A stretch of DNA of 25,989 nucleotides from Gemmatimonadota bacterium (GCA_039588275.1 JBDHAC010000083.1:1-25989), one strand, 5' to 3'. Shown: positions 3,232 through 22,356, counted from the stretch's first letter. Made by a program: numbers and translations. Notes: generated by a model from the letters alone, not told the origin.

Positions 3232-3651
3232 ATGCGCGTGCAACGATGGCTGGCGGCTGCAATCGTAGCACTGGTCGGGGTCTCTGCCCCCGTCGTTGCT
3301 CAGGAGGGCCCGCAACCGGGGGTCGTCTCGGTGCGGTATTTCGAGTGCGGACTCGGGGAGCTCGGCGACGCGGTGCGTCTCGTGAACGAGGAGTGGCGCC
3401 CGATCGCGCAGCAGCTCATCGACGAGGGGATGTTGCTCGATTACGGGATCCTCACGCATTCCTGGGGCGATGAGTGGAACCTGCTGGATTACTACGTCGC
3501 CGAGACCACGCAGGCATTCCATACGGCCTGGGCGGAGCTTGTCAGACGTGTCCAGGCGCAGGATCCGGACGGCAACATGTTCGAGGAGTTCGCCGAGTAT
3601 TGCCCACGGCACAAGGACAACATCTACAGCGTGGTTGCCCCGGCTCCGTAG
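3232..3651 (+). CDS. Secreted hypothetical protein (possible dimeric alpha/beta-barrel fold)
   Basis: GGAGGTG SD; signal peptide ending VVA-QE; HSWGDEWN and CPRHKDNIY segments with two Cys. Confidence 0.85.
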   Translation: MRVQRWLAAAIVALVGVSAPVVAQEGPQPGVVSVRYFECGLGELGDAVRLVNEEWRPIAQQLIDEGMLLDYGILTHSWGDEWNLLDYYVAETTQAFHTAWAELVRRVQAQDPDGNMFEEFAEYCPRHKDNIYSVVAPAP

Positions 3652-3728
3652 CCGGGGACGCGGGCGCTATCGGTGATTGAGCCCGCCGATTCGGCTCGCC
3701 CCCTGCTTACCCGCTCCCCAGCGAGTGG

Positions 3729-6700
3729 ATGACCGTCAAGCCTAGGATCGCGGCGCTGCAAGCGCTGCGGGAGCATCGCGACTTTACGAAGCTCGCCGCG
3801 ATGATGGCCCTCAGCTTCGTGGTCATTTTCGTCGTGGGTGTATTGCGCCCAGTTCGGGCGGCGCTCGCGCTGGACGGTCTCGCGGCCGGCGATTTCTATC
3901 AGGTGTACTTCGTGAGCGCGATCGTGATGCTGTTCGCGCCCGCGTACAACCAGCTCGCCGACCGCGTGCGCTGGAAGCACCTGATCCCGTCGGTGGCGGT
4001 CTTCTTCGCGCTCAGCCTGGTGGTCTTCCGGCTCCTCTACCGGGAGGGGAGCGGTACCTTCGGGATGGTGTTCTACGGCTGGTACGACGTCGTCGTAGCG
4101 GCTCTCGTCACCCAGTTCTTCATCGCGACGCAGCTCTTCTACAACACGCGCGATGCCAAGCGCGCCTATCCGCTCGTGATCGCGGCTGGATCCGTGGGCG
4201 CCGTGGCGGGTGCCGCGGTTCCCGCCATCTTCTCCGAGCGGGTCGGCTCGCCGAATCTGCTCCTCGTCGCCGCGGTGGCGACCGTCGTGTTCGCCGGCGG
4301 ATTGCTGTTCGTGTGGGCGCGCGAAGACCCGGATGAGGGCCGCACGCGCGGGGCCCCGGAGGATGGGGAGCTCTCCGCCGGGGAATTCCGGCGGATCTTC
4401 TCCAACCGGCAGGTACAGCTGATCGCGGCGACCGTCCTCCTCACCATCCTCGTCAAGCAGGTCATCGACTACGAGTACGCCACGATCACCAAGGAGGTGT
4501 TCGAGGAACGCGACCGCGTCAGCAGCTTCTTCGGGATCGTCGATGTGGCCACTCAGTGGCTCCCGATCGTGGTCCTCATCGCCCTGCGCCCGATCCTCCG
4601 GAGGTGGGGGATGGGGGTCGCGGTCCTGATCTTCCCGATCGCCATCCTCGTCGCGACAGGAAGCCTCGCGGTTGCCTTCGGTCTGTGGGCCGCCGTGGGC
4701 GCGCGTCAGGGCGAGCGCATGTTCCGATACTCGGCGGAGCGCGCCAGCCGCGAGATCCTCTACGTGCCCGTGCCGGATGAGATCAAGCTCAAGGCGAAGG
4801 CATACATCGATGTCGCGGTGGAGAAGGGGCTCGGCAAGGCGCTCTCGGGCGTGCTCCTCTTCCTGTTGCTGCTCGTGATGGGATATCGCCAGATTACCTG
4901 GGTGGGACTCGCGCTAGCGGTCCTGCTCCTTGTCGGGTTCATCCGCGTTCGTGGCGAGTACGTGAGGACGCTCGCGAAGTCCATCGAGGGCCGCTTCGCG
5001 AGCCTGCGGGGCACGTACGTGTCGATCACGGGCGGATCGACGATCGAGCTGATCCGCGAGGCCATGACCGATGCGGACCCGCTGAAGGTCGCGTTCGCGC
5101 TCGACCTGGTCGAGCCCGCCGACCCCGAGGATCTGGCCGGATTGTCGACCGAGCTGCACGCGTTGTTGAACCACGAGAGCGCCCAGATTCGAGCGCGCGT
5201 ACTCGGTCTGCTGACCCGGATCCCCGATGCGGTGGATCACGACGCCGTGCGCGCGCGGCTCCTCGATGACGATCAGCGTGTCCGTGAGGCGGCCGTGAAG
5301 ACGTTGGCCGAGGCGTCGCGCGGGTCGCGGGAAGGTCTCATCAGGGAGCTCTTGGACCAGGAAGATCCTCGGGTGCGCGCCGCGACGCTCACCTGCCTCG
5401 CGCACGATCTTCCTCCGGAGCGGGCGGAGTCGATCGTGCAGCCGTTCTACGAGCGCCGACGCGCCGAGGCAGCAGCAACACCGAGCGGCAATCATGCAGA
5501 GAAACGGCTGGAGCTGGCGGTAGCGGCGGGTTTGATGCGGTCAGAGCCCGGAGTTGCGGATCTCCTGCGTACTCTGATCAGCGACCCCGATCCGGCGGTC
5601 GCATCGGCAGCTTTAGAGAGCGCCGGGCAGCTGGCGCGTCCGGAGCTCACCCCGGCGTTGATCGGGGCGGTCGGGTCCGCGTACACGCGGGCATCGGCCA
5701 GGGTGGCGCTGGAGGCGCAGGGGGAGGCGGTGCTGGAGGCGCTGACGAGCGAGCTGAACGACCAGACGGCCGACCCCCGCGTGCGGCGCAACATTCCATC
5801 CGTGCTGGCGACCATCCCCACTCAGGCCACAGTCGAGGCGTTGATCCATTCCTACCTGTTGCCGGAGACCGATCAGGTCCTCGACAACCGCACGCTCAAA
5901 GCGCTCAACAAGCTTCGCGCCCGCGATGCCGATCTGGACTTCGACCTGAACCGGGTGCGCGTCGCCCTGGAACGCGAGATCGACGCGGCGGAGAAGTACG
6001 TGGTGGCGCTGGCGGTGACCGAGCGCCTGGACGTGGAGCGGGATTCGGTCCGACTCCTCGTGCGAGCCCTTCGCGAAGCCCAGAGCGAGCGCCGGGAGAG
6101 CATCTTCCGTTGGCTCGGTCTGGTGTACCCGCCAACGGGCATGTATCGATGCTACCTGGCCGTGACGGGAGGGGATGAGCGGGCTCGCGCCAACGGCATT
6201 GAGTGGCTCGAGACGACCGTCGGCCACGCGCTGTACCAGCGCATTCGACCGGCCTTGCGTCGGGCCGCTCGCGTGGAGCCCCCGGCGGGAGGTCCGGAGC
6301 CGATCCTGCGCGCGCTGTGGGAGGAGGAAGACGTGTGGCTCGCTCGCTGCGCCATGTGGGCGATGGCGGACGCGGGGTTCGAGTCCACGTCGGCAGAGAT
6401 CGCGCGCTTCGAGCCGGGAGACCCGGGCCTGCAACGCGTCGCCGGGCGCATTCGGGCTCGCCTCGCGTCGAATGGCGACCCGGTAGTCGCGCAACGAGAG
6501 GAAAGCATGGACCTGATCGAGAAGGTGTTCCTGCTCCAGAACGTCGACCTCTTGGGGGGCGCTCGCAGCGCGCAGTTGGCCCTTCTCGGGTCCATCGCCC
6601 AGGTGGTGAACGCGGATGGCGGCAAGCTGTTGATCCGGCGGGGCGAGCCGACGGACGCGCTCTACGTCGTGATCCGGGGCGAAGTCGAGTTGCAGGGCGT

Positions 6701-6920
6701 AGGCGAGCAGACGCTTCGAGTCACCGACGGATCGCCGTTCGGCACCTGGGCCCTGATCGACGAGGATCCGAGTCTCGTCGAGGCCCGAACGGTTCGGCCC
6801 ACCAGGCTGTTGAGGATCCAGCGGCGGGACTTCTACGATCTCCTCGCAGATCACCCCGAGCTGGGTCTGGACTTGCTCCAGGGCCTCGCCCGGAGGGTCC
6901 GTACGCTCGTGCGCGCGTAG
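3729..6920 (+). CDS. Npt1/Npt2 (TLC ATP:ADP translocase-like) MFS transporter fused to HEAT repeats and a C-terminal cNMP-binding-like domain
   Basis: About 12 TM segments with NTT-type motifs (LRPVRAAL, AKRAYPLV, FRYSAERASREILYVP, KAKAYID, LGKA). HEAT-like repeats (VREAAVKTL, VRAATL, VRRNIPSVL). CAP/cNMP fold LIRRGEPTDALYVVIRGEV. Confidence 0.9.
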   Translation: MTVKPRIAALQALREHRDFTKLAAMMALSFVVIFVVGVLRPVRAALALDGLAAGDFYQVYFVSAIVMLFAPAYNQLADRVRWKHLIPSVAVFFALSLVVFRLLYREGSGTFGMVFYGWYDVVVAALVTQFFIATQLFYNTRDAKRAYPLVIAAGSVGAVAGAAVPAIFSERVGSPNLLLVAAVATVVFAGGLLFVWAREDPDEGRTRGAPEDGELSAGEFRRIFSNRQVQLIAATVLLTILVKQVIDYEYATITKEVFEERDRVSSFFGIVDVATQWLPIVVLIALRPILRRWGMGVAVLIFPIAILVATGSLAVAFGLWAAVGARQGERMFRYSAERASREILYVPVPDEIKLKAKAYIDVAVEKGLGKALSGVLLFLLLLVMGYRQITWVGLALAVLLLVGFIRVRGEYVRTLAKSIEGRFASLRGTYVSITGGSTIELIREAMTDADPLKVAFALDLVEPADPEDLAGLSTELHALLNHESAQIRARVLGLLTRIPDAVDHDAVRARLLDDDQRVREAAVKTLAEASRGSREGLIRELLDQEDPRVRAATLTCLAHDLPPERAESIVQPFYERRRAEAAATPSGNHAEKRLELAVAAGLMRSEPGVADLLRTLISDPDPAVASAALESAGQLARPELTPALIGAVGSAYTRASARVALEAQGEAVLEALTSELNDQTADPRVRRNIPSVLATIPTQATVEALIHSYLLPETDQVLDNRTLKALNKLRARDADLDFDLNRVRVALEREIDAAEKYVVALAVTERLDVERDSVRLLVRALREAQSERRESIFRWLGLVYPPTGMYRCYLAVTGGDERARANGIEWLETTVGHALYQRIRPALRRAARVEPPAGGPEPILRALWEEEDVWLARCAMWAMADAGFESTSAEIARFEPGDPGLQRVAGRIRARLASNGDPVVAQREESMDLIEKVFLLQNVDLLGGARSAQLALLGSIAQVVNADGGKLLIRRGEPTDALYVVIRGEVELQGVGEQTLRVTDGSPFGTWALIDEDPSLVEARTVRPTRLLRIQRRDFYDLLADHPELGLDLLQGLARRVRTLVRA

Positions 6921-6962
6921 ACCGGCGGCCACGCAGACACACGACGCAGAGCCGGAGGACGG

Positions 6963-7439
6963 ATGTCGGACCAAAAGACGACGGTGATGATCGTGGACGA
7001 TGAGGAGATGGTCGTCACCTCGATTCGCAGCTTTCTGGAGTTGGAGACGTCGCACCGCGTGCTGACGTTCACCTCGCCGTCGGATGCGCTCGAGGTGCTC
7101 GCCGCGGAGAACGTGCACGTGATCGTGGCCGATTACATGATGCCCGGGATGGACGGGGTCACGTTCCTGACGGCAGCTCGGGAGTGTCGCCCGCAGGCTT
7201 CGCGAATCCTGCTCACCGGATATGCGGACCGGCACAACGCGATCCGAGCCATCAACGAGGCCGGATTGTATCACTATCTGCAGAAGCCGTGGGAGAACGA
7301 GGAGCTCAAGCTCATCATCCGAAACGGCGTGGAACGATCACAGCTCTTCAACGAGCTGGATGCGCGCGTGAGCGCCCTCGAGGTCGCGAACGAGGAACTG
7401 TCCGGGTTCCACCAGAAGTTGATCGAGGCGTTTCTGTAG
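6963..7439 (+). CDS. Response regulator (REC domain plus C-terminal coiled coil)
   Basis: IVDDE, ADYMMPGMDG, LLTG and YLQKPW motifs; GGAGG SD. Confidence 0.95.
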   Translation: MSDQKTTVMIVDDEEMVVTSIRSFLELETSHRVLTFTSPSDALEVLAAENVHVIVADYMMPGMDGVTFLTAARECRPQASRILLTGYADRHNAIRAINEAGLYHYLQKPWENEELKLIIRNGVERSQLFNELDARVSALEVANEELSGFHQKLIEAFL

Positions 7440-7455
7440 CGTGCCGGGACCGTCG

Positions 7456-8267
7456 ATGAGTGCGCGCAAAGATCCGCATTCGGAGCTGGAAGAGCTTCGC
7501 CGGGCGGGGCGCAAACCGAGCTGGTCAACTCTGCCAAGCTGGCGACGCTGGGATCCCTGGTCGCGGGCGTAGCGCACGAGATCAACACGCCACTCGGAGC
7601 GCTGCACAGCAACCACGACGTGATCGAGCGTGCCCTCAACAAGCTGCAGGAAATCCTCGAGGACGAGGTCGTCACGCCCGATGAGCTCGAGGAAGTACGC
7701 AAGATCGTGCGTGCGATGGATGGCGTGCTGCACACCAACGGCATCGCTGTCGATCGGATGGTGAAGCTCGTGGACAGCCTGCGCACGTTCGGGCGGCCCG
7801 ATCGGGCGGATATCGACCGGGTGGACCTGCACGACGGCATCGAGGGAACTCTGGCCGTGCTCGGGCACGAGATTCACGACATCGAGATCGTGCGAGAGTA
7901 CGGCGACATCCCGCACGTCGAATGCTACCCGGACCGAATCAACCAGGTGTTCATGAACCTGTTGCTCAACGCGCTTCAGGCGATGGGTGAGCGCGGGACC
8001 CTGACGGTTCGGAGCCGGTCGGGCGCGGGCCAGGTGTCCGTGGCGATCTCCGACACGGGCCCCGGCATCGCACCAAATACGCTCGAGATGCTCTTCGACC
8101 CCGGCTTCACGACCAAGGGAGACCGTGTCGGGATGGGACTCGGTCTCGCAATCTCGCGACAGATCGTTGACCAGCACGGTGGCGATATCGAGGTCGAAAG
8201 CGTCCTGGGGGAGGGCACGACGTTCATCGTGTACCTCCCGCTCGACCTGACCGAAGCCGAGGCATGA
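7456..8267 (+). pseudogene. Sensorless histidine kinase (NtrB-like), frameshifted by a 5-bp duplication at 7502-7511
   Basis: ATG 7456 reads MSARKDPHSELEELRRA. Another frame reads QTELVNSAKLATLGSLVAGVAHEINTP (H-box), QVFMNLLLNA, DTGPGI, FTTK and GMGLGL. Removing one GGGCG copy joins the two frames. Confidence 0.85.
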
Positions 8268-8307
8268 GGTTAGAGGGCGTAAACGCCACGTCGTAAGGAG
8301 GTCTTCA

Positions 8308-9306
8308 ATGGTCCGGCACTCGCGGTTTAGCTCGACAATCCCGTTCATGCTGTTGGCCCCGGCGGCAATGCTGGGGCAGGACACCAACATCATCGTGCCG
8401 GCATCGGAGGTGGAGGAGCGGTTCAAGTTCCAGTCCTTCGAGGTCGTCACCATGCCGACATCCCGGGGCCTCCCCAGCGAGCGGACCTACCGTCCCGTCG
8501 TCCGGTTCGAGGATGGGGCGATGCTGGAGCTCAAGTTCGCGCCCGCCCCGGTCGGCGGGGAGGTGTTCAACAACCGACCCCAGTACGAGGTCGGGGCGTA
8601 CGAGCTGCAGAAGCTCTTCCTGGACGAGTCCGAGTACGTGGTCCCTCCGACGGTCGCCCGTTGTTTTCCGTTCGATTTCGTCGAGCAGGCGATCGACAAG
8701 GCGCCCAATCGGAACGCGATCGAAGACCCGCAGCCCACGTTCGAGGAGTGGCGGATGTCGCTCGTCGTCCTCCAGTACTGGCTGTGGAATATCGACATCG
8801 CGGACAGGGACGATATCCGGGACCGGCAACGGCTCGAAGAGGACGAGGTCTTTGCCCGTCACGCGGGGAACTTCAACCTCCTCACCTACCTGATCCGACA
8901 CAACGATTCGAACGTGGGGAATTTTCTCATCTCGACCGACCCGTCGAACCCGCGCATCTTCAGCGTGGACAATGGGCTCGCGTTCTCCAACGAGGAGAGC
9001 GATCGTGGCACGTACTGGCGCGACTTGCGTATCGAGCGCTTTCCGGCTGCGTCCATCGAGCGGCTGAGGGCGGTCACGCTCGAGGATCTGCATGCGGCCC
9101 TGGGGGTCGTGGCCCAATTCTCCTTGGGGCCCGACGGTCAATTCGTGCAGGTCGAGCCCACCGAGAACCTCGCTCCCGATACGGGGATCCGCCGCCGTGC
9201 TACGGTGTTACAGATGGGGCTCCGCGCGTCAGAGATCCGAAACGTACACCGTCGCCTCGAGCGACTCCTCCGGGACATCGACAACGGGAAGTATGAGGTC
9301 TTCTAG
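8308..9306 (+). CDS. Putative exported atypical kinase (PI3K/PI4K-like, FAM20C/HipA-like fold)
   Basis: TAAGGAGGT SD. N-terminal signal-like segment ending AMLG-QD. Motifs ELKF (candidate ATP Lys), YEVGAYEL, VVPPTVAR, LIRHNDSNVGNFL (catalytic loop) and VDNGLAF (metal-binding). Confidence 0.75.
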   Translation: MVRHSRFSSTIPFMLLAPAAMLGQDTNIIVPASEVEERFKFQSFEVVTMPTSRGLPSERTYRPVVRFEDGAMLELKFAPAPVGGEVFNNRPQYEVGAYELQKLFLDESEYVVPPTVARCFPFDFVEQAIDKAPNRNAIEDPQPTFEEWRMSLVVLQYWLWNIDIADRDDIRDRQRLEEDEVFARHAGNFNLLTYLIRHNDSNVGNFLISTDPSNPRIFSVDNGLAFSNEESDRGTYWRDLRIERFPAASIERLRAVTLEDLHAALGVVAQFSLGPDGQFVQVEPTENLAPDTGIRRRATVLQMGLRASEIRNVHRRLERLLRDIDNGKYEVF

Positions 9307-9319
9307 GTTGCAGCACGTC

Positions 9320-10639
9320 ATGTCCCTGCGGGGCACACTGGGGATCGCAGGAGTAGCGCTCGCGATCGCGTTTCCGGGCATCCAGGCCGCACGCCTCGTT
9401 GAACCCGAAGGACGATTCGACGGGGAGTACGGGCTCTTCATCCGCCACGTGGAGCAGGACCTTCACGTAGGCTGGCTCACGGACGAGCCGGATCGGGGAG
9501 TCCTGCGGGCTTACGTGGACGGCGAGCTGGCAACGGCGGAGAAGACACCCGCCGCCCAGATCCACGCCGCCGTGGTCAAACTGAACGGTGACCAGAGCGA
9601 CGGCGGCCATCGCGACGGGGAGTCCGTGTTGCTCGAATATGGAGGGAGCGAGGACAGCGAGCCCCTGCACCGGACTCGCGTTCAGCTCGAACCTCCGCCC
9701 TCCGAAGCGACGCTCGTGTACGAAGGGGTCGATTCCCTTTATGTGATCGGCGATTCGCACGGCGAATTCGATACCGTGGCGGGACTCCTCCAAAACGCCG
9801 GGCTGATCGATGCCGAGCTCCATTGGACCGGCGGCACCCGGCACCTCGTCATGCTCGGCGACCTGTTCGACCGCGGTGCCGATGTCACGCGTCTCCTGTG
9901 GTTCGTGTATGGTCTCGAGCGCGAGGCGGAAGCCGCAGGCGGCCGGGTCCATACCGTGCTCGGCAATCACGAGATCATGGTGATGATCGGCGACCCCCGG
10001 TACGTGTCGGACAAGGAAGACTCGATCGCCAAGCTCCATAACGTCGGGTATTCGGAGCTGTTCGAGCCCCATACCTCCGTGCTCGGGCGGTGGCTCGCCA
10101 GCAAGCCCGCGCTCCTCCGGATCGAGGATGTCCTGCTCGCGCATGGTGGGGTCGGCCCGCGGTACCTGGGATACGGGCTCAGCGAGCTGAACGACACCCT
10201 TCGCCTATACATGGGGGAGGAGCTCTTCACGCACTGGTACGATGACGAGTTCCTGGGTGCGTGGGCCGAGGAGACGACGCTCGACTCGGCCGCCGTCGAT
10301 CGACGTTGGACGTTCTTCAACCATTCCGAGAGCATCTTCTGGTACAGGGATCTGGTGTACAGCGACACGCTGGGCGAGTACCTGACCAAAGTGTTGGAGC
10401 GGTTCAGGAGTAGCGTCCACGTAGTCGGACACACCCCGCTTGATCACATCGAGGAGCGCTACGACGGCCGCCTGATCGGGGTGGACATGGAGGAGGCCGC
10501 CACCGAGCTCCTGTTCCTGGCCAAGAACGAGGAGGGTGGTTGGGACCGATGGAAGATCGGTCTTGAAGGCCCTCCGGGACCGATTCTCAAGGACAGCGTC
10601 CCAGGGCACCCACAAGACAGCACCCGACGACCTCGGTAG
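9320..10639 (+). CDS. Exported metallophosphoesterase, Shewanella-like (Shelph) PPP phosphatase, with N-terminal accessory domain
   Basis: Signal peptide MSLRGTLGIAGVALAIAFPGIQA; GDSHG, GDLFDRG, GNHE, HGG, FWYR, VVGHT and VD motifs. Confidence 0.9.
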   Translation: MSLRGTLGIAGVALAIAFPGIQAARLVEPEGRFDGEYGLFIRHVEQDLHVGWLTDEPDRGVLRAYVDGELATAEKTPAAQIHAAVVKLNGDQSDGGHRDGESVLLEYGGSEDSEPLHRTRVQLEPPPSEATLVYEGVDSLYVIGDSHGEFDTVAGLLQNAGLIDAELHWTGGTRHLVMLGDLFDRGADVTRLLWFVYGLEREAEAAGGRVHTVLGNHEIMVMIGDPRYVSDKEDSIAKLHNVGYSELFEPHTSVLGRWLASKPALLRIEDVLLAHGGVGPRYLGYGLSELNDTLRLYMGEELFTHWYDDEFLGAWAEETTLDSAAVDRRWTFFNHSESIFWYRDLVYSDTLGEYLTKVLERFRSSVHVVGHTPLDHIEERYDGRLIGVDMEEAATELLFLAKNEEGGWDRWKIGLEGPPGPILKDSVPGHPQDSTRRPR

Positions 10640-10670: not shown

Positions 10671-11924
10671 TCATTCAGGGCTGGGATCTCGCCAGGGAAG
10701 GGCGCCCTCGCCCCAGGCCAGCTCTCCATCGATCACGGTCATGGTGCAGGCGTTGGGACGCAGGTGATAGAGCCACGTCTCGACGTCGGGTGCGTCCAGT
10801 ACTGCGAAATCAGCGGCTTTCCCCGGTTCCAGAGACCCGCAACGATCCTCCAGGCCCGCCGCGCGCGCGGCGTACAGCGTCGCTGCCTTCAACGCTTCTG
10901 CCGGGGTCATGCGCTGCCGCGTGCACGCGAGGGTCATGGCGAACGGCAGGTGGTAGCTCGGGGCCGTGCCGGGGTTGAAGTCCGTGGCGACGGCGACGGC
11001 GACTCCACCCTCGATCAGCGCCCTCGCCGGGGGCGGATCCTGGTTCAGGTAGAGCGTGGCGATCGGTAGGGTGACGGCAACGACGCCGCTCGTCGCCATC
11101 GCCGCGATCCCGTCCGAGGAGACGTGCTCGAGGTGATCGGCCGAAACGGCGCCCACTTCGGCCGCGAGCGCCGCACCACCGCCATCGCTCAGCTGATCCG
11201 CGTGCAGTTTCGACCCCAGCCCCAGCTTTCGGGCCGCCAACAGAAGCGTGCGTGCCTCCTCGAGCGTGAAGGCGGACTCCTCCACGAAGACGTCGCAGAA
11301 GCGCGCGAGTCCTGTCGCGGCTACTTCCGGGAGTAGCTCATCCAGCAACAGTCGTACGTATCCGGCGCGATCTGATTCGAACTCGACCGGTACCACGTGG
11401 GCACCCAGCAGGGTGGGGACGATCCGGAGGGGGCCTTCCTCCGACAGGCGCCGGTAGACGCGCAGGAGCTTGAGCTCGTCGGCGACCGAGAGACCGTACC
11501 CCGACTTGCACTCGATCGTGGCGACCCCGAGCCGAACCATATCGCGTGCGAAGCCCCGGCAGCGTGCGAGGAGCGCATCCTCGGCCAGTGCGCGAGTGCG
11601 CGACACGGTCGAAGCGATCCCGCCACCGCGCCGCGCGATGTCCAGGTAGGTCGCGCCCCTGATCCGATCCGCGAACTCTTCCGCACGCCAGCCGCCGAAC
11701 GCGAGGTGCGTGTGTGCGTCTACGAGGCCCGGGATCACCAGACGCCCGCCAGCATCCCACCTCTCCCAGTCCACGTACGGATCGGGAAGGTCGCGGGCGC
11801 TACCCACCCAACACACCGCGGCTCCGTCCCACGCGAGCGCTGCGTCGGTGATCACGCCCGCATCCGCCTGGCCATCGCCCGCAGCACACGTCGCGAGTCG
11901 GGCGATGTTCGTCAGGACGGGCAC
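10671..11924 (-). CDS. hutI: Imidazolonepropionase
   Basis: PGLVDAHTH, GGGIASTV, ECKSGYGL, LGAH, KLHADQL, ADHLE and ATDFNPG motifs; adjacent to hutU. Confidence 0.96.
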   Translation of the reverse strand: MPVLTNIARLATCAAGDGQADAGVITDAALAWDGAAVCWVGSARDLPDPYVDWERWDAGGRLVIPGLVDAHTHLAFGGWRAEEFADRIRGATYLDIARRGGGIASTVSRTRALAEDALLARCRGFARDMVRLGVATIECKSGYGLSVADELKLLRVYRRLSEEGPLRIVPTLLGAHVVPVEFESDRAGYVRLLLDELLPEVAATGLARFCDVFVEESAFTLEEARTLLLAARKLGLGSKLHADQLSDGGGAALAAEVGAVSADHLEHVSSDGIAAMATSGVVAVTLPIATLYLNQDPPPARALIEGGVAVAVATDFNPGTAPSYHLPFAMTLACTRQRMTPAEALKAATLYAARAAGLEDRCGSLEPGKAADFAVLDAPDVETWLYHLRPNACTMTVIDGELAWGEGALPWRDPSPE

Positions 11925-11972
11925 GGATCGCCTCGCGCGGCTCGATCGTGCGGGGGCACCGGCATGCGCTGG

Positions 11973-13640
11973 CTAGGGCTCCAACATGGGGAGATCCACG
12001 CCGCGCTCCCGTGCGGTGGCGATCGCCCCCTCATACCCGGCATCCGCGTGTCGCATCACACCGCTGCCGGGATCGGCGGTCAGCACGCGCTCCAGCCTGC
12101 GGCTGGCGGATTCGGTCCCGTCCACGACGCATACCATCCCGGCGTGTATCGAATACCCGATGCCGACCCCCCCTCCGTGGTGGACCGATACCCAACTCGC
12201 GCCGCAGGCCGTGTTCAGCATCGCGTTCAGGAGCGGCCAGTCCGCGATCGCGTCGGACCCGTCCAGCATGCCCTCGGTCTCGCGGTTGGGCGAGGCGACC
12301 GACCCGGTATCCAGGTGATCGCGGCCCAGCACGATGGGCGCCTTCAGCGCCCCGCTCCGCACGAGCTGGTTGAAGCGCTCTCCCATCTCCGCTCGTTCCC
12401 CGTACTCCAACCAGCAGATCCGCGCGGGGAGTCCCTGGAAGTGGACCTTCTCGCGAGCCTTTCGGATCCAGCGGACCAGGCTGTCCTTCTCGGGAAACGT
12501 CTCGAGCACGGCCTCATCGGTCACGGCGATGTCTTCGGGGTCACCGGAGAGTGCCGCCCACCGGAACGGCCCCGCCCCGCGGCAGAAGAGGGGTCGAATG
12601 AACTCCGGCACGAAGCCCGGGATATCGAAGGCCTCCTTCATGCCTCGGTTATCGGCCACCTGACCCCGCAGGTTGTTCCCGTAGTCGAACGTCACGGCGC
12701 CCGCCTCCTGCAAGGCCAGCATGGCCTCGACATGGACGACCATCGAGTCCAGCACCCGCTCTTCGTACCCGGCGGGATCGCGCTCGCTCATTTGGAGCGC
12801 GGCGTCTACCGACATGCCGGCCGGGATGTATCCGAGGCGCAGGTCGTGTGCGGCCGTCTGATCGGTCAGGACGTCGGGTACGATGCCGCGCTCTACGAGC
12901 TGTGGCAGGACATCGGCGATGTTGCCCAGCAGACCGATCGACAGGGCGTCGCCCTTCGACTTCGCGTCGAGCACCCACTCCAGGGCTTCGTCCAGATCGG
13001 TGCACAGCCGGTCGCAATACCCCGTATCGATGCGGCGACGGATCCGCTCCTCGCGGACTTCGACGCCCAGGAAGGCGGCGCCCGTCATGGTAGCGGCGAG
13101 TGGCTGCGCCCCTCCCATGCCACCGAGTCCGGCCGTCACCACCAACCGGCCCTCCATCGAACCTCCGAAACGCTGGCGCGCGCACTCGGCGAACGTCTCG
13201 TAGGTGCCCTGCAGGATCCCCTGCGTGCCGATGTAGATCCACGAGCCGGCCGTCATCTGCCCGAACATCGTGAGCCCGAGCGCCTCCAGGCGGCGGAACT
13301 CGTCCCATGTGGCCCAATTCGGCACCAGGTGCGCGTTCGCGATCAATACCCGCGGAGCCTCTTCATGGGTGCGGAACACGCCGACCGGCTTCCCGCTCTG
13401 AACGAGCAGCGTCTCGTCGTTCCCCAAGCGCCGGAGCGTGTGAACGATCTTCTCGTAGCACTCCCAGCTTCGGGCGGCGCGGCCGCTTCCACCGTACACG
13501 ATCAACTGGTCCGGATCTTCGGCCACTTCCGGATCCAGGTTGTTCATGAGCATCCTCAGGGCCGCCTCCTGGTGCCATCCTTTGCAGGAGATCTCCGTTC
13601 CCCGAGGCGCGCGTATCCGTCGGATCGCCGTGCCAGTCAT
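11973..13640 (-). CDS. hutU: Urocanate hydratase
   Basis: [50 protein letters not shown] and HHGGGVGIG motifs. Confidence 0.98.
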
Positions 13641-15256
13641 CGCGAGTCTCCCGGTCCTTCGTCTCCGAGCGCCTCCTCTCCGAGCGCCTCCTCTACCGCG
13701 TCGACGATGCCACCGCTGTCGATCAGCTCGACCAGGGTCTCGATGTCGGGAGCCAGCGCGCGGTCCTCCAAGACCGGCTCCACGCGCTCGCGGATCTTGG
13801 CGTACGCTCCGGTCGTTCCACGACCGAGCAGAGCAGGACCGTCTTCGCGCAGGTAGATGGCCTGCGCGGCCGCCAGCAGCTCGACGGCCACGACGTACTC
13901 CACGTTGTCTACGATCTCGCGCGCCCGGCGGGCAGCGTTCGCCCCCATGCTCACGTGGTCTTCCTGATTCGCGCTGGTCGGAATCGAGTCGACGCTATCC
14001 GGGTGGGCCAGGGTCTTGTTGTCCGATACGAGTGCCGCCGCCGTGTATTGGGCGCTCATGAGCCCGCCGTTCAGACCCGGATTCTCGGTCAACATCGCTG
14101 GAAGCCCCCTGGAAAGTTCGGGAGTGAGCAGCCGGAAGACGCGCCGGTCGCTGATGTTGGCGGCCTCTGCGATCGCGATCCCGAGCACATCCAGCCATAA
14201 CGCAGGGCCCGCACCATGGAAGTTCCCGCCCGAGACGGCTTTGCGATCCGAGTCCGCGCGATTAACGAAGATCAGCGGGTTGTCGGATGCGGCGTTCATC
14301 GCGGCTTCCACTCGCTCCTCGATGAACGCTAGCATGTCATGTATCGGCCCCAACACCTGCGGCGTGCACCTCACGCTATACGCGTCCTGAACCCGTTCGG
14401 GGTCCGAATCGACAAGCCCGCTCCCCGTCAGCAACGAGCGCAGACGGGCCGCGGTTCGCACCTGCCCGGGTTGCCCGTTCACATCGTGCAGGGAGGGGTG
14501 CAAGGCCTCGGAGAGCGCCCGAAGACCCTCCATGCTGAGTGCAGCCGCGATCTCGGCGTGGGCGAGGGTCCGCTTTGCATCGTGGACGGCGAGCGCTGCG
14601 GCGGCCACCATCATGGAGGTGCCGTTGGTGAGCGCGAGCCCCTCCTTCGCTTCGAGCACGGGCCGCGTGATATCGGCGCGCCGCATGGCTTCGTCGCCAC
14701 TGACGAGCTCGTCTCCGTACCAAGCTTCGCCGCTGAAGTCAGCGCGCATGCTCTCGGGCCCGCGCGTCGCGACGGCCGCGATGTGCGCGAGCGGAGCCAG
14801 GTCGCCGGAGGCCCCGAGCGAGCCCTTCGCGGGCACCCGGGGCGTGACCCCCCGATTCAACATGTCGACCAGCGTTTGTACGATCGCGGGGCGGATCCCC
14901 GAGACTCCCTTGGCGAGAGAATTGGCGCGGATCAGGAGCATCGCTCGCACGCTGTCCTCCGGGAGCGCGTCTCCCACCCCAACCGCACACTTGAGGATCA
15001 CGTTGCGAGACAGGAGGCCCGCGTCCTCGCTCGCGATCCGGTGGCTCGCGAGCGACCCGTAGCCGGTGTTCACGCCATAGATCGTCTCTTCATTCGACTC
15101 CAGCACTCCCTGAATCCAGCCGTAGCTGGCCTCCATCCGCTCGATGACGTCGGGCTCGAGCGGATCGACTGGAGCCCCCTCCCGGGCGACCGCGACGACG
15201 TCATCGATCCGAAGACCCTCACCGCGCATGCGGACGCGCGCACGGCCATCGTTCAT
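13637..15256 (-). CDS. hutH: Histidine ammonia-lyase (MIO-dependent aromatic amino acid lyase)
   Basis: [14 protein letters not shown] motif ([11 protein letters not shown]), [14 protein letters not shown] and [17 protein letters not shown] before ATG 15256; 4-bp overlap with hutU. Confidence 0.92.
13663..13692. repeat. Perfect in-frame 15-bp tandem duplication in the hutH 3' end
   Basis: CTCCGAGCGCCTCCT x2, encoding [10 protein letters not shown]. Confidence 0.8.
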
Positions 15257-15530
15257 CTCCCGCCTCCTGGTTGCCAGCGGCCGGGATCTCGCCCGGCAAG
15301 TCCCCCTCTCGGAGCCCACGTCGCCGTCGGCCATAATGTACGGAGTGCGACCCCGCGCCGGGACTGCCGGCGTTCGCACCCCAGCCGAGGGACGAGCCAT
15401 TGGCACGCGCGGGGGCTGTTTGGTAGCTTGGTACAGCAGTTCCTAACACATCGAGTCGTGCTAGTGGTCGGGTGGAGCGGATCGTGTCGGGTGGCGAGTG
15501 GGGAGGTGGGTTCGTGATGGGGTGACACTG

Positions 15531-16830
15531 GTGGCGGATCGAACCAAGCCGAAGCTGCTCATCGTCGACGATGAGCCGGCTCTCAGAGGCGCGCACGGTC
15601 ATCGAGCGACACGACCCCGACCTGGTGATCTCGGATGTCGTCCTTCCGGATCTCTCTGGGCTCGAGCTGTTGAAGCACCTCAAGGGGCAGGACAGTCTGC
15701 GCCCCGTCATCCTCATCACCGCGCACGGGAGCATCGATGCGGCCGTCGACGCGATGAAGAGCGGGGCCGACGACTTCCTCACCAAGCCGCTCGACTACGC
15801 AAAGCTCCAGGTTACCGTACGAGCCGCGCTCGAGGAGCTGCGACACCGCCGCGAGATCGGACGCGTGGAATCGATGCTCGACGCCGAGCCCGGCTTCGGC
15901 GCCTTGATCGGCATGAGTCCAAGCATGCGCGAGGTGTATCGTCTCATCGAGCAGCTCGCCGAAAGCGACGCGTCCGCGATCATCACGGGGGAGAGCGGGA
16001 CCGGCAAGGAGCTCGCGGCCCGCACGGTTCACGACATGGGTACCAGGCGTAATGGCCCGTTCGTGGCGATCAACACCGCTGCGATCCCCGATGGCCTGGT
16101 CGAGAGCGAAGTGTTCGGTCACGAGAAAGGAGCGTTCACGGGGGCCGCGCATCCGCGACCCGGCTGCTTCGAGCTCGCTGACGGCGGCACCCTGCTCCTG
16201 GATGAGATCGCGGAGATGCCGGCGACGATGCAGCCGAAGCTGCTCCGGATTCTCGAATCGGGCCGCGCGCGACGGGTGGGGGGAACCCGGGAGCGTTCCT
16301 TCGACGTGCGGGTGCTGGCGGCGACGAACCAGGATCCTGCGCAATCCGTCGAGGACGGCAAGCTCCGCGAGGACCTGCTGTACCGGCTGAACGTCTTCCA
16401 CATCACGCTGCCTCCCTTACGGGAGCACATGGAGGATCTCTCACTGCTCGCGCAGCACTTCATCCGGATCTTCAACGAGAAGCACGATGCGGCCGTGAGC
16501 GGCGTGGGCGAGGAGGCGCGCGAGCTTCTGGGAGCGTACCGGTGGACCGGAAACGTGCGGGAGCTGCGGAACGTGCTCGAGCGGGCGACGATCCTCGCTC
16601 GCGCCGGGTGGATCGACCCCACCCACCTTCCACCCTACCTGCGCGAGTCCGGCAACCAAAGGGAGGACGCGGTCGTGCTCCCGCTCGGGATCTCGGCCGC
16701 CGAGGCGGAGAAGCGCCTGATCCTCAAGACGCTCGAGGTGGTGGGCTACAACAAGGCGGCTGCCGCCCGACAACTGGGGATCGACGTCAAGACGATTCGG
16801 AACAAGCTGAAGCTCTATGGTGAGTCGTAG
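15531..16830 (+). pseudogene. Sigma54-dependent response regulator (REC-AAA+-Fis HTH) with an out-of-frame deletion in the REC domain
   Basis: MADRTKPKLLIVDDEPALR is in one frame; SEARTVIERHDPDLVISD, GESGTGKE, GAFTGA, LLLDEI, REDLLYRL, GNVREL and the C-terminal HTH are in another. The junction is at about 15582-15589. Confidence 0.85.
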
Positions 16831-16839
16831 CAGTCCGCC

Positions 16840-16873
16840 CGCGATGGCTCGAGTAACGCGATGGCTCGGGTAA
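16840..16873. repeat. 17-bp tandem repeat upstream of the kinase start
   Basis: CGCGATGGCTCGAGTAA then CGCGATGGCTCGGGTAA, followed by CGGGATG containing the start codon. Confidence 0.8.
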
Positions 16874-16877
16874 CGGG

Positions 16878-18410
16878 ATGAGGGTCTCGACAAAGCTCGG
16901 ACTGGCTTTCGGGCTACTCGTATCGCTCGTCGTGGCGATGCTCGTGTACCACGTGTCTGTGATCCAGGAGGTCGCCAGGCTGAATCGTGATCTTTCGGCC
17001 GTGACCGTGCGACTCGCGCTCAGCTCGACGGACCAGCTCGGGCAACTCGACGACCTCGAGGAGAACGCGAGCAAATATCTCGTGACCGGCGACGAGGGCT
17101 ACCTCGAGGCGTACCGGCGATCGCGCCGCGCGTTTACCGGCTCGCTTCAGCAGCTCCGCGACCTGCCACTCACCGGGGATGAACAGGTTGAAGTCGAGCT
17201 CTTGTCCGGCCTGTGGAACGCGTTCTTGCGCACGGTCTCGCTCGGGGCATCGGCTGACTCGCTCGCGGCCGACGGTGATCTGTCCGCCCGACTCGCGGAC
17301 GTGGCGAACGAGGTGGAGCCTTTACGACGCCAGACGCTCCGGGTGAGCCAGGCCTCACAGCTCGCGATGGCGGCGACAGTGGAGCTCTCCACGGCAGCCG
17401 CGCGGCGTGCGAGCCGCATGTCGGGCGGTGCCGGCGTGGCGGCCGCTCTGGCCGCCGTGTTGCTGGCCCTCATCATCGTCAGGTCCATCTCGGAGCGCCT
17501 CGGCCAACTGAAGCGGGGCGCACAGGGCGTAGCGGAGGGCGACTTCTCCGTGCGGGTGGACACGCAGGGATCCGATGAGTTCTCCGAGGTCGCGCAGACT
17601 TTCAACGCCATGACGGAGCGGCTCGGTGAGCTGGACCGGATGAAGCGCGACTTCCTCTCGCAGGTCTCCCACGATCTGAAGACGCCGCTCGCGTCCATAC
17701 ACGAGACCAATCAACTCTTGCTGGACCAGCTCCCCGGGGAACTGAACGAAAAGCAGCGACATCTCCTCCGGCTCACGACCCGGAGCGCCGACCGACTCTC
17801 CATCATGATCGGCAAGTTGCTCGACATGGCGCGGCTCGACGCCGGGGCGATCGAGTACGAGTTCCGGGAGCACGAGGTGGGGGCTCTCATCCGGGCAGCC
17901 GTTTTGGAGATCATCTCGCAGGCGGCAGATCGCGGGCTGCGCATCGAGACCGAACTGCCGAACCGCGCGGTACACATCGAATGCGACGGGGATCGGGTAA
18001 CCCAGGTCGTGATCAATCTGCTCGAGAACGCCGTCAAGTTCTCGGATCCTGGAAGCCGAGTCGTCGTACGGGTCGAGTGCCTTGACGGCGGGGCGTTCCA
18101 GCTTGCGACCCCTTCTACGCGCGAGAGAGGGGGCGAGGTGGCTCGAATCTCGGTCCTCGACCGTGGACCGGGGATTCCGAGCGCCGACAAACGCAGGATC
18201 TTCGACCGGTTTCACCAGGCAGCCTCCGCAGGGCGCGATACCGAGCGCGGCGTGGGTCTCGGACTCGCGATATGTCGAGAGATCGCGACCGCGCACGCGG
18301 GCGAGGTCCAGGTGACGGACCGTAGCGGAGGCGGGAGCGTCTTCTCGCTCCTCATCCCCAATGCTCGGACAGAATGGGCCGAGGCCGAGTTGGCCCGCAC
18401 GGGGACGTAG
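16878..18410 (+). CDS. Membrane sensor histidine kinase with HAMP domain (GlrK/QseE-like)
   Basis: Two TM helices around a periplasmic helical domain; HAMP (DEFSEVAQTFNAM), VSHDLKTPL, NLLENAVKF, DRGPGI and GVGLGL. Confidence 0.95.
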   Translation: MRVSTKLGLAFGLLVSLVVAMLVYHVSVIQEVARLNRDLSAVTVRLALSSTDQLGQLDDLEENASKYLVTGDEGYLEAYRRSRRAFTGSLQQLRDLPLTGDEQVEVELLSGLWNAFLRTVSLGASADSLAADGDLSARLADVANEVEPLRRQTLRVSQASQLAMAATVELSTAAARRASRMSGGAGVAAALAAVLLALIIVRSISERLGQLKRGAQGVAEGDFSVRVDTQGSDEFSEVAQTFNAMTERLGELDRMKRDFLSQVSHDLKTPLASIHETNQLLLDQLPGELNEKQRHLLRLTTRSADRLSIMIGKLLDMARLDAGAIEYEFREHEVGALIRAAVLEIISQAADRGLRIETELPNRAVHIECDGDRVTQVVINLLENAVKFSDPGSRVVVRVECLDGGAFQLATPSTRERGGEVARISVLDRGPGIPSADKRRIFDRFHQAASAGRDTERGVGLGLAICREIATAHAGEVQVTDRSGGGSVFSLLIPNARTEWAEAELARTGT

Positions 18411-18416
18411 ACCGCG

Positions 18417-19034
18417 ATGAACCGCACTCCGCTGGCCTTGCCGATCCTGTTGGTGGCCCTCGCGGCTGGGTGCGCGACGAGCGTATTCGACAAGCACTTC
18501 GAGCGGGGAAGGTACGCCGCCGCCGCTGCCGCATTCGAGCAGGACAGCGCGCTCCGCTATGACGAGCGTTCGCTGTTCCGTGCAGGGCTCGTGCACGCGT
18601 TCCCGTCCTCCGACGCGTTCGATCCCTCGCTGGCGCTGGAGTACTTCGCGCGACTCGACTCGCTGTTTCCGGACAACCCCTACCGGGTCGAGGCACGTCG
18701 CATCGGCGCGCTCCTGGAGGATCGCAGCCGTCTTCAATCGGAGTTGGAGCTTCATCGCTCCGACCTGGACGACCTGCGCGCCCGGATCGCGCGGTTCGCC
18801 GATCGCGAAAGGCGGCTGGAGCGAAGAGGTGCGGAGCGGGACGCCGAGGTGGCCCGTCTGGAGGCTCAGGCCGCCCTGCTCGAAAGCCAGCTACGTGAGC
18901 GCTCCGTCGAGCTCGCGGCGTTACGGCAAGAGCTCGAGCGACTCAAAGCCATCGATCTGAGGTCGTCTAGATCCCGGAGCCGTTCAGGTGATGGGGGGCC
19001 CGATACCACGGGAAGCGACGGGCGACCGAGGTAA
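18417..19034 (+). CDS. Lipoprotein with TPR-like helices and coiled coil (QseG/YfhG-like)
   Basis: Lipobox LAAG-C; C-terminal coiled coil ending ELERLKAID; 6 bp after the kinase gene. Confidence 0.8.
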   Translation: MNRTPLALPILLVALAAGCATSVFDKHFERGRYAAAAAAFEQDSALRYDERSLFRAGLVHAFPSSDAFDPSLALEYFARLDSLFPDNPYRVEARRIGALLEDRSRLQSELELHRSDLDDLRARIARFADRERRLERRGAERDAEVARLEAQAALLESQLRERSVELAALRQELERLKAIDLRSSRSRSRSGDGGPDTTGSDGRPR

Positions 19035-22271: not shown

Positions 22272-22346
22272 GGTGGGCGTAGCTCAGTCGGTTAGAGCGC
22301 CAGGTTGTGGCCCTGGAGGTCGCGGGTTCGAATCCCGTCGCTCACC
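22272..22346 (+). tRNA. tRNA-His(GTG) with G-1:C73, CCA not encoded
   Basis: G+GTGGGCG/CGCTCAC+C acceptor stem, anticodon arm CCAGG-TTGTGGC-CCTGG, T-loop TTCGAAT. Confidence 0.97.
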
Positions 22347-22356
22347 CTCTCCCAAC

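Follow-up and report, generated by a model that had tools for sequence, protein, structure and literature searches.

A recurrent pairing of NTT-family carriers with predicted exported Fam20/PI4K-type-II-fold kinases suggests a candidate envelope phosphorylation system in Gemmatimonadota

We analysed a 25,989-nucleotide stretch of DNA from a Gemmatimonadota bacterium (GCA_039588275.1 JBDHAC010000083.1:1-25989; hereafter the window), in which six co-oriented genes at positions 3232-10639 encode a small secreted protein, an NTT/TLC-type carrier, a receiver (REC) protein, a histidine kinase (HK), a predicted exported atypical kinase and a predicted exported phosphatase. We propose that the carrier feeds ATP to the extracytoplasmic kinase and that the cluster would be an envelope phosphorylation system, a reading that, on sequence evidence, we hold to be evenly poised between right and wrong. 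In its wider form, the proposal is of an envelope cycle in many uncultured diderm bacteria, in which NTT ATP exporters would fuel exported Fam20-fold kinases of at least two families, a PPP phosphatase would reverse their action and a phosphorelay would gate the supply; we advance this tentatively, as somewhat short of an even prospect. The original prediction, made from the sequence of the window, had described a module of writer, eraser and fuel supply. Its kinase-carrier link and export signals have held up; its candidate substrate, a fixed six-gene unit, gating by cAMP and a mark on protein are not supported. The arrangement is far from chance: the gene order carrier-REC-HK-kinase-phosphatase recurs across many genera, as against the 1.3% of the source genome that lies within 6 kb of any NTT-like gene.

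Loci were found mainly through the kinase, and the shares of loci given here are not genome-wide rates. Among 251 genomes of the phylum, the kinase was present in 17 and a carrier orthologue (E < 1e-80) in 18; in all 17 kinase-bearing genomes a single contig carries both, no more than about 6 kb apart, and the one remaining carrier is truncated, at 359 amino acids (aa). Among 61 relatives, both genes were present in 23, the kinase only in 3, the carrier only in 6 and neither in 29. We then surveyed the best 80 of 217 kinase loci from GTDB, 13 of them named Ca. Palauibacter. Of the 54 loci with long flanks, 38 have the carrier near the kinase and 43 the phosphatase; these counts include 33 loci with both, and 6 loci have neither. 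Three loci (L293, L093 and L104) consist of abutting carrier-kinase pairs with no REC, HK or phosphatase alongside. Carrier, kinase and phosphatase families were found to occur together, to adjoin one another and to fuse, so this check did not refute the original prediction.

The strongest independent evidence tying carrier to kinase comes from distant, lipoprotein-type kinases, for which we examined the best 80 of 223 loci, mostly on short contigs. Of the 80, 24 have an NTT-like gene no more than 6 kb away, compared with the 1.3% background; among the 48 loci flanked by at least 1 kb, 15 have such a gene starting less than 600 nt downstream of the kinase. All 12 such neighbours that were tested pass the Pfam TLC cut-off. 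In a tree of NTT domains (101 thinned from 139; a quick IQ-TREE run with SH-like approximate likelihood ratio test (SH-aLRT) support only, on a set that does not include the sequences of Major et al. 2017), the carriers of distant kinases occupy no fewer than three solo-TLC clades, none of them the clade of the window carrier. In a kinase tree (115 of 198 sequences, after 52 short-contig rows and near-duplicates were dropped; FastTree, midpoint root), a solo TLC neighbour accompanies 20 of 33 rows of the lipoprotein clade, and the other clade pairs with the NTT-HEAT-cNBD carrier and the phosphatase. The carrier link spans both deep kinase clades, and the kinase family stands beside at least four NTT subfamilies. 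Moreover, two proteins from different sources, P0144 and P0273 (67% identical), are TLC-kinase fusions in which a hydrophobic, signal-like stretch follows the final carrier helix just ahead of the kinase; given the topology usual for such carriers, this would place the fused kinase outside.

These data bear on the possibility that a carrier-REC-HK unit and a kinase-phosphatase unit were joined once in a Gemmatimonadota ancestor and have travelled together with no functional link. We consider this highly unlikely. The sampled genomes are kin, and the modules are separate in family f2 and in KSB1/Calditrichota-type genomes, as hitchhiking would allow; a single joining does not explain why members of both deep kinase clades adjoin NTT carriers, of four or more subfamilies in all, why the kinase is fused to one of these, or why carrier-kinase units persist after intervening genes have been lost. 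The separations do dispose of a single fixed six-gene unit. Carrier-REC-HK and kinase-phosphatase are two separable modules: 9 of the 23 relatives with both genes keep kinase and carrier though apart, the carrier-REC-HK set there mostly being followed by a RibD_C-domain gene.

The kinase (332 aa; positions 8308-9306, + strand) is predicted from a structure model to have a Fam20/PI4K-type-II fold. It has 1834 relatives in the 90% database, or 650 representatives at 50% clustering, and its named close homologues are Gemmatimonadota. Across 91 diverse homologues, six residues (K76, E94, H198, D200, N205 and D221) show conservation of at least 90%, and they would fit the ATP-binding Lys, helix-C Glu, catalytic loop and metal-binding Asp. 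The AlphaFold2 model has a predicted local distance difference test (pLDDT) score of 94.1, with only the first 20 residues low. Foldseek placed PI4KII-alpha first (E 1.7e-6), then Fam20C (E 2.2e-6). In the VIA structural search the top three rows were Fam20 proteins: hydra Fam20 (5xom; Z 16.6, root-mean-square deviation (rmsd) 3.7, 255 residues aligned), Golgi casein kinase (4kqa; Z 16.4) and zebrafish Fam20C (Z 16.2). PI4KII-alpha (4hnd; Z 14.8), actin-fragmin kinase (12.0), CtkA (11.2) and CotH (10.8) were also matched. The kinase fold named in the original prediction is therefore borne out by structure prediction and Foldseek. A mark made on protein is not supported, since only about 2 Z units separate the scores of Fam20 protein kinases, a Fam20 solved with a sugar, and PI4KII; the acceptor may be a protein, a glycan or a lipid, because this structural neighbourhood holds all three kinase types.

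By sequence the kinase stands apart. The window protein gave a weak Pfam match to ABC1 (E 0.022) and none to PI3_PI4_kinase (PF00454); of 91 homologues, 34 match the latter weakly when E values up to 0.1 are allowed, the best being 1.6e-5. Fam20C (PF06702) matches 1 of 91 (E 0.057), and one Atlas cluster has 22% Fam20C members. Searches of the source genome found no match to PF00454 and none to PF06702, the control of the latter search also coming up empty. A sequence search of the PDB with the kinase gave weak PI3K/ATM matches (best Vps34, E 0.0034), and the fold search puts the kinase closer to Fam20 and PI4KII. Judging by the model, the protein probably works like a Fam20/PI4KII kinase, though it is a member of neither family by sequence. 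Fam20 secretory-pathway kinases, which phosphorylate S-x-E proteins or xylose, are its best structural match (Z 16.2-16.6) and share with it a DxxxxN catalytic loop and a DNG metal loop and have a signal peptide, which for the window kinase is predicted; the window kinase differs in being smaller and bacterial, at 12-14% identity and rmsd 3.7-4.0. Type II phosphatidylinositol 4-kinases (4hnd, 4hne), the top Foldseek match, share the fold and K76/E94/D200/N205/D221, but are cytoplasmic, membrane-bound lipid kinases, whereas the window kinase is predicted to be exported. The Bacillus spore-coat kinase CotH (5jda) is likewise a bacterial atypical kinase of the same broad fold, although the match (Z 10.8) is clearly weaker than that to Fam20 or PI4KII; CotH acts in coat assembly in the cytoplasm of the mother cell, where no ATP carrier is called for.

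Export was called by a heuristic, a 10-residue hydropathy window of at least 2.0 at the N-terminus, rather than by SignalP. By this measure, 77 of 83 kinase and 47 of 53 phosphatase open reading frames (ORFs) have a hydrophobic N-terminal window, compared with 4 of 58 for REC and 18 of 57 for HK; in the window, the N-termini of the 139-aa protein, the kinase and the phosphatase are signal-like, and those of REC and HK are not. In 45 close kinase homologues a variable hydrophobic N-terminus is followed by Q24-D25, invariant in 45 of 45, and 61 distant homologues have a Cys at the lipobox position and another pair of Cys residues, each conserved to 90% or more. We predict a cleavable signal in the close relatives and a lipoprotein-type signal in the distant ones. 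A chance pattern is unlikely, because two different signal types occur across the family. Hence kinase and phosphatase are predicted to be exported, as first proposed, and not cytoplasmic. Because the kinase has both an intact ATP site and an export signal, it would need a phosphate donor outside the cytoplasm.

Several proteins and loci show the kinase in other company. In P0208 and P0274, the latter named from Myxococcales (41 contigs), a signal peptide and a Beta-lactamase2-fold domain precede the fused kinase, a hint of an envelope or cell-wall context; at L157 a Beta-lactamase2 gene faces an NTT-HEAT-cNBD gene. At L091 and L114 a membrane Hanks-type kinase follows the kinase, with a convergent phosphatase gene and no carrier nearby.

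The phosphatase (439 aa; positions 9320-10639, + strand; Pfam Metallophos, E 5e-10) is a predicted exported PPP-family metalloenzyme. All three of its PDB matches are Shewanella phosphatase PPI (1v73, 2z72; E 1e-39). It has the motifs GDxHG, GDxxDRG, GNHE, HGG and GHT at residues 144, 180, 215, 275 and 370, the first three of them as defined for PPPs (PMC535813), and each of these five metal-site motifs occurs in 66-67 of 67 orthologues. The bacterial-type PPP motif (I/L/V)D(S/T)G described in the same source reads VDME in the window, and 1 of the 67 orthologues matches it; Shewanella PPI itself reads VDSS there. Within the group of Shewanella cold-active phosphatase PPI and the Shelphs, PPI is the closest solved relative, with metal-site motifs intact and an insert between GNHE and HGG; the window enzyme differs in an extra N-terminal region, a predicted signal peptide, VDME and its linkage or fusion to a kinase. 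In 53 of the 80 GTDB loci no more than 3 kb separates phosphatase and kinase, and the two are fused in seven proteins, kinase first in P0123, P0127, P0268, P0270, P0271 and P0272 and phosphatase first in P0269. It is the partner of only one of the two main kinase clades. P0271 and P0272 are three-domain proteins (kinase, phosphatase, second kinase-like domain), and a related PI3_PI4_kinase-domain gene (L115:8839-9930) lies directly upstream of the kinase in L115.

The carrier (positions 3729-6920, + strand) is a single chain of 1063 aa comprising TLC, HEAT repeats and then a cNBD, all above the Pfam cut-offs (TLC E 7e-11, HEAT_2 E 1e-10, cNMP_binding E 3e-12); for TLC the score is 42 bits against a cut-off of 21. 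Its TLC/NTT membrane part spans about residues 1-420, in which a crude scan found 11 hydrophobic segments. With a 30-sequence carrier profile, only two solved NTT1 carriers match strongly (9j3n, E 2e-37; 9j3j, E 3e-34). Carrier D247 aligns with AtNTT1 E385. AtNTT1 E245 and K527 align with D120 and K370, and Asp and Lys stand there in 14 of 14 operon-type carriers; the K155 position is Tyr (Y60) in all 14, a Lys lying two residues before it in 9 of the 14 and a Gln in the window protein. Structure-chain numbering was converted to that of the literature with an offset of 84, inferred from residue spacing. E245 is assigned to translocation, K527 to ATP binding and K155 to ADP binding in the published account (PMC3306366). 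With E245 and K527 kept and K155 lost, the sequence evidence for an adenine-nucleotide substrate is mixed. Plastid and parasite ATP/ADP translocases (AtNTT1, 9j3j; 9j3n) are homologous in the membrane domain and have counterparts at the E245 and K527 positions; unlike them, the window carrier falls far under the TIGR00769 cut-off, has Tyr at K155 and a long cytoplasmic tail, and would work with net export.

That last difference raises the question of direction. The carrier might instead import nucleotides or phosphorylated solutes, the PPP acting as a general periplasmic phosphatase and the kinase using environmental ATP or recycling nucleotides. Characterised parasite NTTs do import (PMC5381601), the specificity of bacterial PPPs is described as not predictable from sequence (PMC535813), PPP orthologues occur alone (G298, G202) and other exported phosphatases (PAP2, Metallophos) adjoin other NTT-HEAT genes. 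Such scavenging, however, gives no account of a catalytically intact kinase fused to carrier or phosphatase, and an ATP-removing carrier together with a phosphatase would compete with the kinase. An exchange set by gradients would also be expected to favour ATP leaving a free-living cell. We regard scavenging as distinctly improbable. A net outward flow of ATP would follow because the exchanger faces high cytoplasmic ATP and, presumably, a periplasmic source of ADP.

The original prediction has the HEAT/cNMP tail of the carrier gate ATP release; the sequence of the tail argues against cAMP as the ligand. The canonical cAMP/cGMP phosphate-binding cassette reads FGE...PR, whereas the pocket in the window reads FGTW...PS. 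Among 94 cNBD-like domains the first of these positions is Thr in 78 and Glu in 3, and the second is Ser in 67 and Arg in 20. Binding of cAMP or cGMP in the usual mode is therefore unlikely, judged by the pocket, and we rejected canonical gating, as the pocket is without the canonical Glu and Arg. The cNBD-like domain is nevertheless the most conserved part of the fusion. The three-domain architecture was published by Major, Embley and Williams in 2017 as uncharacterised in function, with Gemmatimonadetes in their sample and an identical domain order (PMC5381601). They proposed cAMP-tuned ATP uptake, in contrast to what the window pocket suggests, and their main text names no REC, HK, kinase or phosphatase neighbours (PMC5381601).

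REC is the most constant immediate neighbour of the carrier, usually together with HK. The stand-alone REC protein (158 aa; positions 6963-7439, + strand; Pfam Response_reg, E 2e-23) has an acidic pocket, phospho-Asp, Thr and Lys (D12, D13, D57, T85 and K108, invariant in 33 of 33 orthologues of mean identity 71%) and ends in a short C-terminal tail. In KSB1/Calditrichota-type genomes, NTT-HEAT and cNBD genes are followed by a REC of this type. HK (269 aa; positions 7458-8267, + strand, with the start read from the sequence) comprises HisKA and HATPase_c, with H, N and G boxes present. Its H-box is at residue 40, so that only 39 residues precede it, and there is no hydrophobic segment, which agrees with its earlier description as sensorless. 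Of 46 operon loci, 35 have a short, non-membrane HK and 11 a longer one, with a hydrophobic segment in 10 of those 11. In family f2 (L143-L152) a membrane histidine kinase, a His_Phos_1 gene, which we take to be SixA-like, and a patatin gene precede carrier-REC-HK, and a RibD_C-domain gene follows.

This constancy could mean that the NTT-HEAT-cNBD protein is a sensing transceptor, binding or slowly moving a periplasmic nucleotide or phosphorylated metabolite and signalling through its tail to REC and HK, an explanation we consider unlikely; in it, the exported kinase and phosphatase would set the level of the sensed metabolite. REC, usually with HK, stays with the carrier where kinase and phosphatase have moved or were not found. 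The high conservation of the cNBD-like domain, the loss of K155 and the lack of a sensor in most HKs would all suit a carrier that senses. Against this, distant kinases pair with tail-less solo TLC carriers, two-gene carrier-kinase units and TLC-kinase fusions occur without REC and HK, and the kinase would be left with no phosphate donor. The solo TLC partners do without tail, REC and HK, and regulation would be an attachment specific to this carrier subfamily.

We favour the supply of ATP by the carrier as the simplest reading, because the kinase recurrently adjoins, fuses with and, after other losses, retains a homologue of nucleotide exchangers. The NTT-family carrier in the inner membrane would likely exchange cytoplasmic ATP for periplasmic ADP; the predicted exported Fam20-fold kinase would transfer phosphate from the ATP so carried to an acceptor in the envelope, be it protein, glycan or lipid; and, in this clade, the predicted exported PPP phosphatase would strip the phosphate that the kinase had placed. 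Kinase and carrier would form the core of the system, with the HEAT and cNBD-like tail, REC and HK as a regulatory attachment of this subfamily, perhaps gating the carrier through a phosphorelay or through some ligand that is not cAMP. We infer adenine-nucleotide transport, its outward direction, the acceptor, the eraser role and the gating from these families, residues and contexts.

A number of observations weigh against this proposal. The carrier scores 30.7 bits against TIGR00769 (NTP/NDP exchange transporter), whose cut-off is 387.2, and is thus remote from true ATP/ADP exchangers; the ADP-binding Lys is replaced by Tyr throughout the operon-type carriers; and no NTT-HEAT fusion had been characterised as of the text of PMC5381601. 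The export calls come from a heuristic, and the predominance of sensorless HKs (35 of 46 loci) suits a transceptor. The 17 positives of the phylum sample span five genera, 13 being in one genus. Three of the 61 relatives have the kinase without a carrier orthologue, and six have carrier-REC-HK with no kinase found; a profile search for the kinase in five of these six was empty, two of the genomes being at least 90% complete. NTT-like genes occur in 58 of the 61 relatives and are near universal in the order, so mere co-presence of carrier and kinase means little. In 17 KSB1/Calditrichota-type genomes there is no NTT gene at the kinase loci; at other sites each of these genomes has NTT-HEAT genes, which belong to other subfamilies and often precede a cNBD gene and REC. 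Finally, the phosphatase adjoins none of the 80 distant lipoprotein-type kinases, and its orthologue occurs without a kinase or carrier orthologue in 2 of 17 genomes (G298, G202).

A second, unrelated-looking lipoprotein family, of about 570 aa, has kinase-like motifs and aligns with the first kinase family at an hhalign E of 0.002 for the profile and 0.12 for one sequence; its putative kinase fold rests on motifs and hhalign. By hand count, 18 of the 49 relatives that have it place it no more than 6 kb from other NTT paralogues, and eight of its loci were mapped. We rejected the idea that it replaces the kinase in carrier-only genomes, since it is present in 49 of the 61 relatives and so is uninformative. 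It was not found in the source genome (G000), which is 86% complete. At L313-L317 (for example, L316:5159-14007) two membrane proteins of ~550 aa, a 757-aa NTT-HEAT protein, a 438-aa secreted protein and a kinase-like lipoprotein of ~570-600 aa form a parallel cluster that is likewise conserved; C42 of the source genome carries an NTT-HEAT gene related to the one in these clusters, with a similar upstream protein. The KSB1/Calditrichota-type loci L208:4312-11783 and L210:158-6620 have a solo TLC gene, then NTT-HEAT, cNBD and REC; an exported phosphatase, of PAP2 or Metallophos type, accompanies them, and L208 also has a kinase-like lipoprotein upstream.

The coordinates and domains of the six genes in the window were borne out by ORFs and Pfam, with intergenic gaps, in order, of 77, 42, 18, 40 and 13 bp. 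The first gene (positions 3232-3651, + strand) encodes the 139-aa secreted protein, once put forward as a candidate substrate. By the hydropathy heuristic its N-terminus is hydrophobic, ending VVA-Q; it has no match in Pfam or NCBIfam, and its Atlas matches are hypothetical, with one weak EthD lead at 0.87. It adjoins the carrier in just 5 of 32 and 2 of 80 loci, and five paralogous ORFs lie at other sites of the source genome. We therefore rejected it as a dedicated substrate; it is a local passenger from a multi-copy family and not a conserved member of the system.

The 3' limit of the cluster is a convergent gene at 10671. The genes at 10671-15406 on the - strand (amidohydrolase, urocanase-like, ammonia-lyase-like), which also flank the operon in several relatives, are presumably histidine-utilisation-like. 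No sigma-70 promoter was found at the locus, and terminator-like matches were at chance level. A sigma-54-type response regulator and a HAMP sensor kinase lie at 15571-19034 on the - strand beside a convergent 205-aa coiled-coil lipoprotein, a set that by eye recalls QseE/QseF/QseG; a Pfam scan of the lipoprotein gave coiled-coil matches only. tRNA-Pro is at 369-442 and tRNA-His at 22273-22347, and an open frame at 2-268, beside tRNA-Pro, looks by eye like the end of an integrase.

Each part of this system belongs to or resembles a known family, and the novelty would be the system, only if the coupling we propose is right. Our literature search, which covered few subscription journals, turned up no account of this kinase family, nor of its association with NTT carriers. 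The original prediction had taken the periplasm to lack ATP; this is not strictly so, ATP being reported in the periplasm of E. coli in a 2020 review that calls its route across the bacterial inner membrane unknown (PMC7432876). The cluster supplies a named candidate ATP exporter and a named consumer, through which both that route and the function of NTT-HEAT proteins become directly testable. If the proposal is true, the NTT-HEAT-cNBD family would gain a function, and free-living bacteria a first named inner-membrane ATP exporter. It would also extend ATP-dependent phosphorylation to the bacterial envelope and bear on the origin of secretory-pathway kinases.

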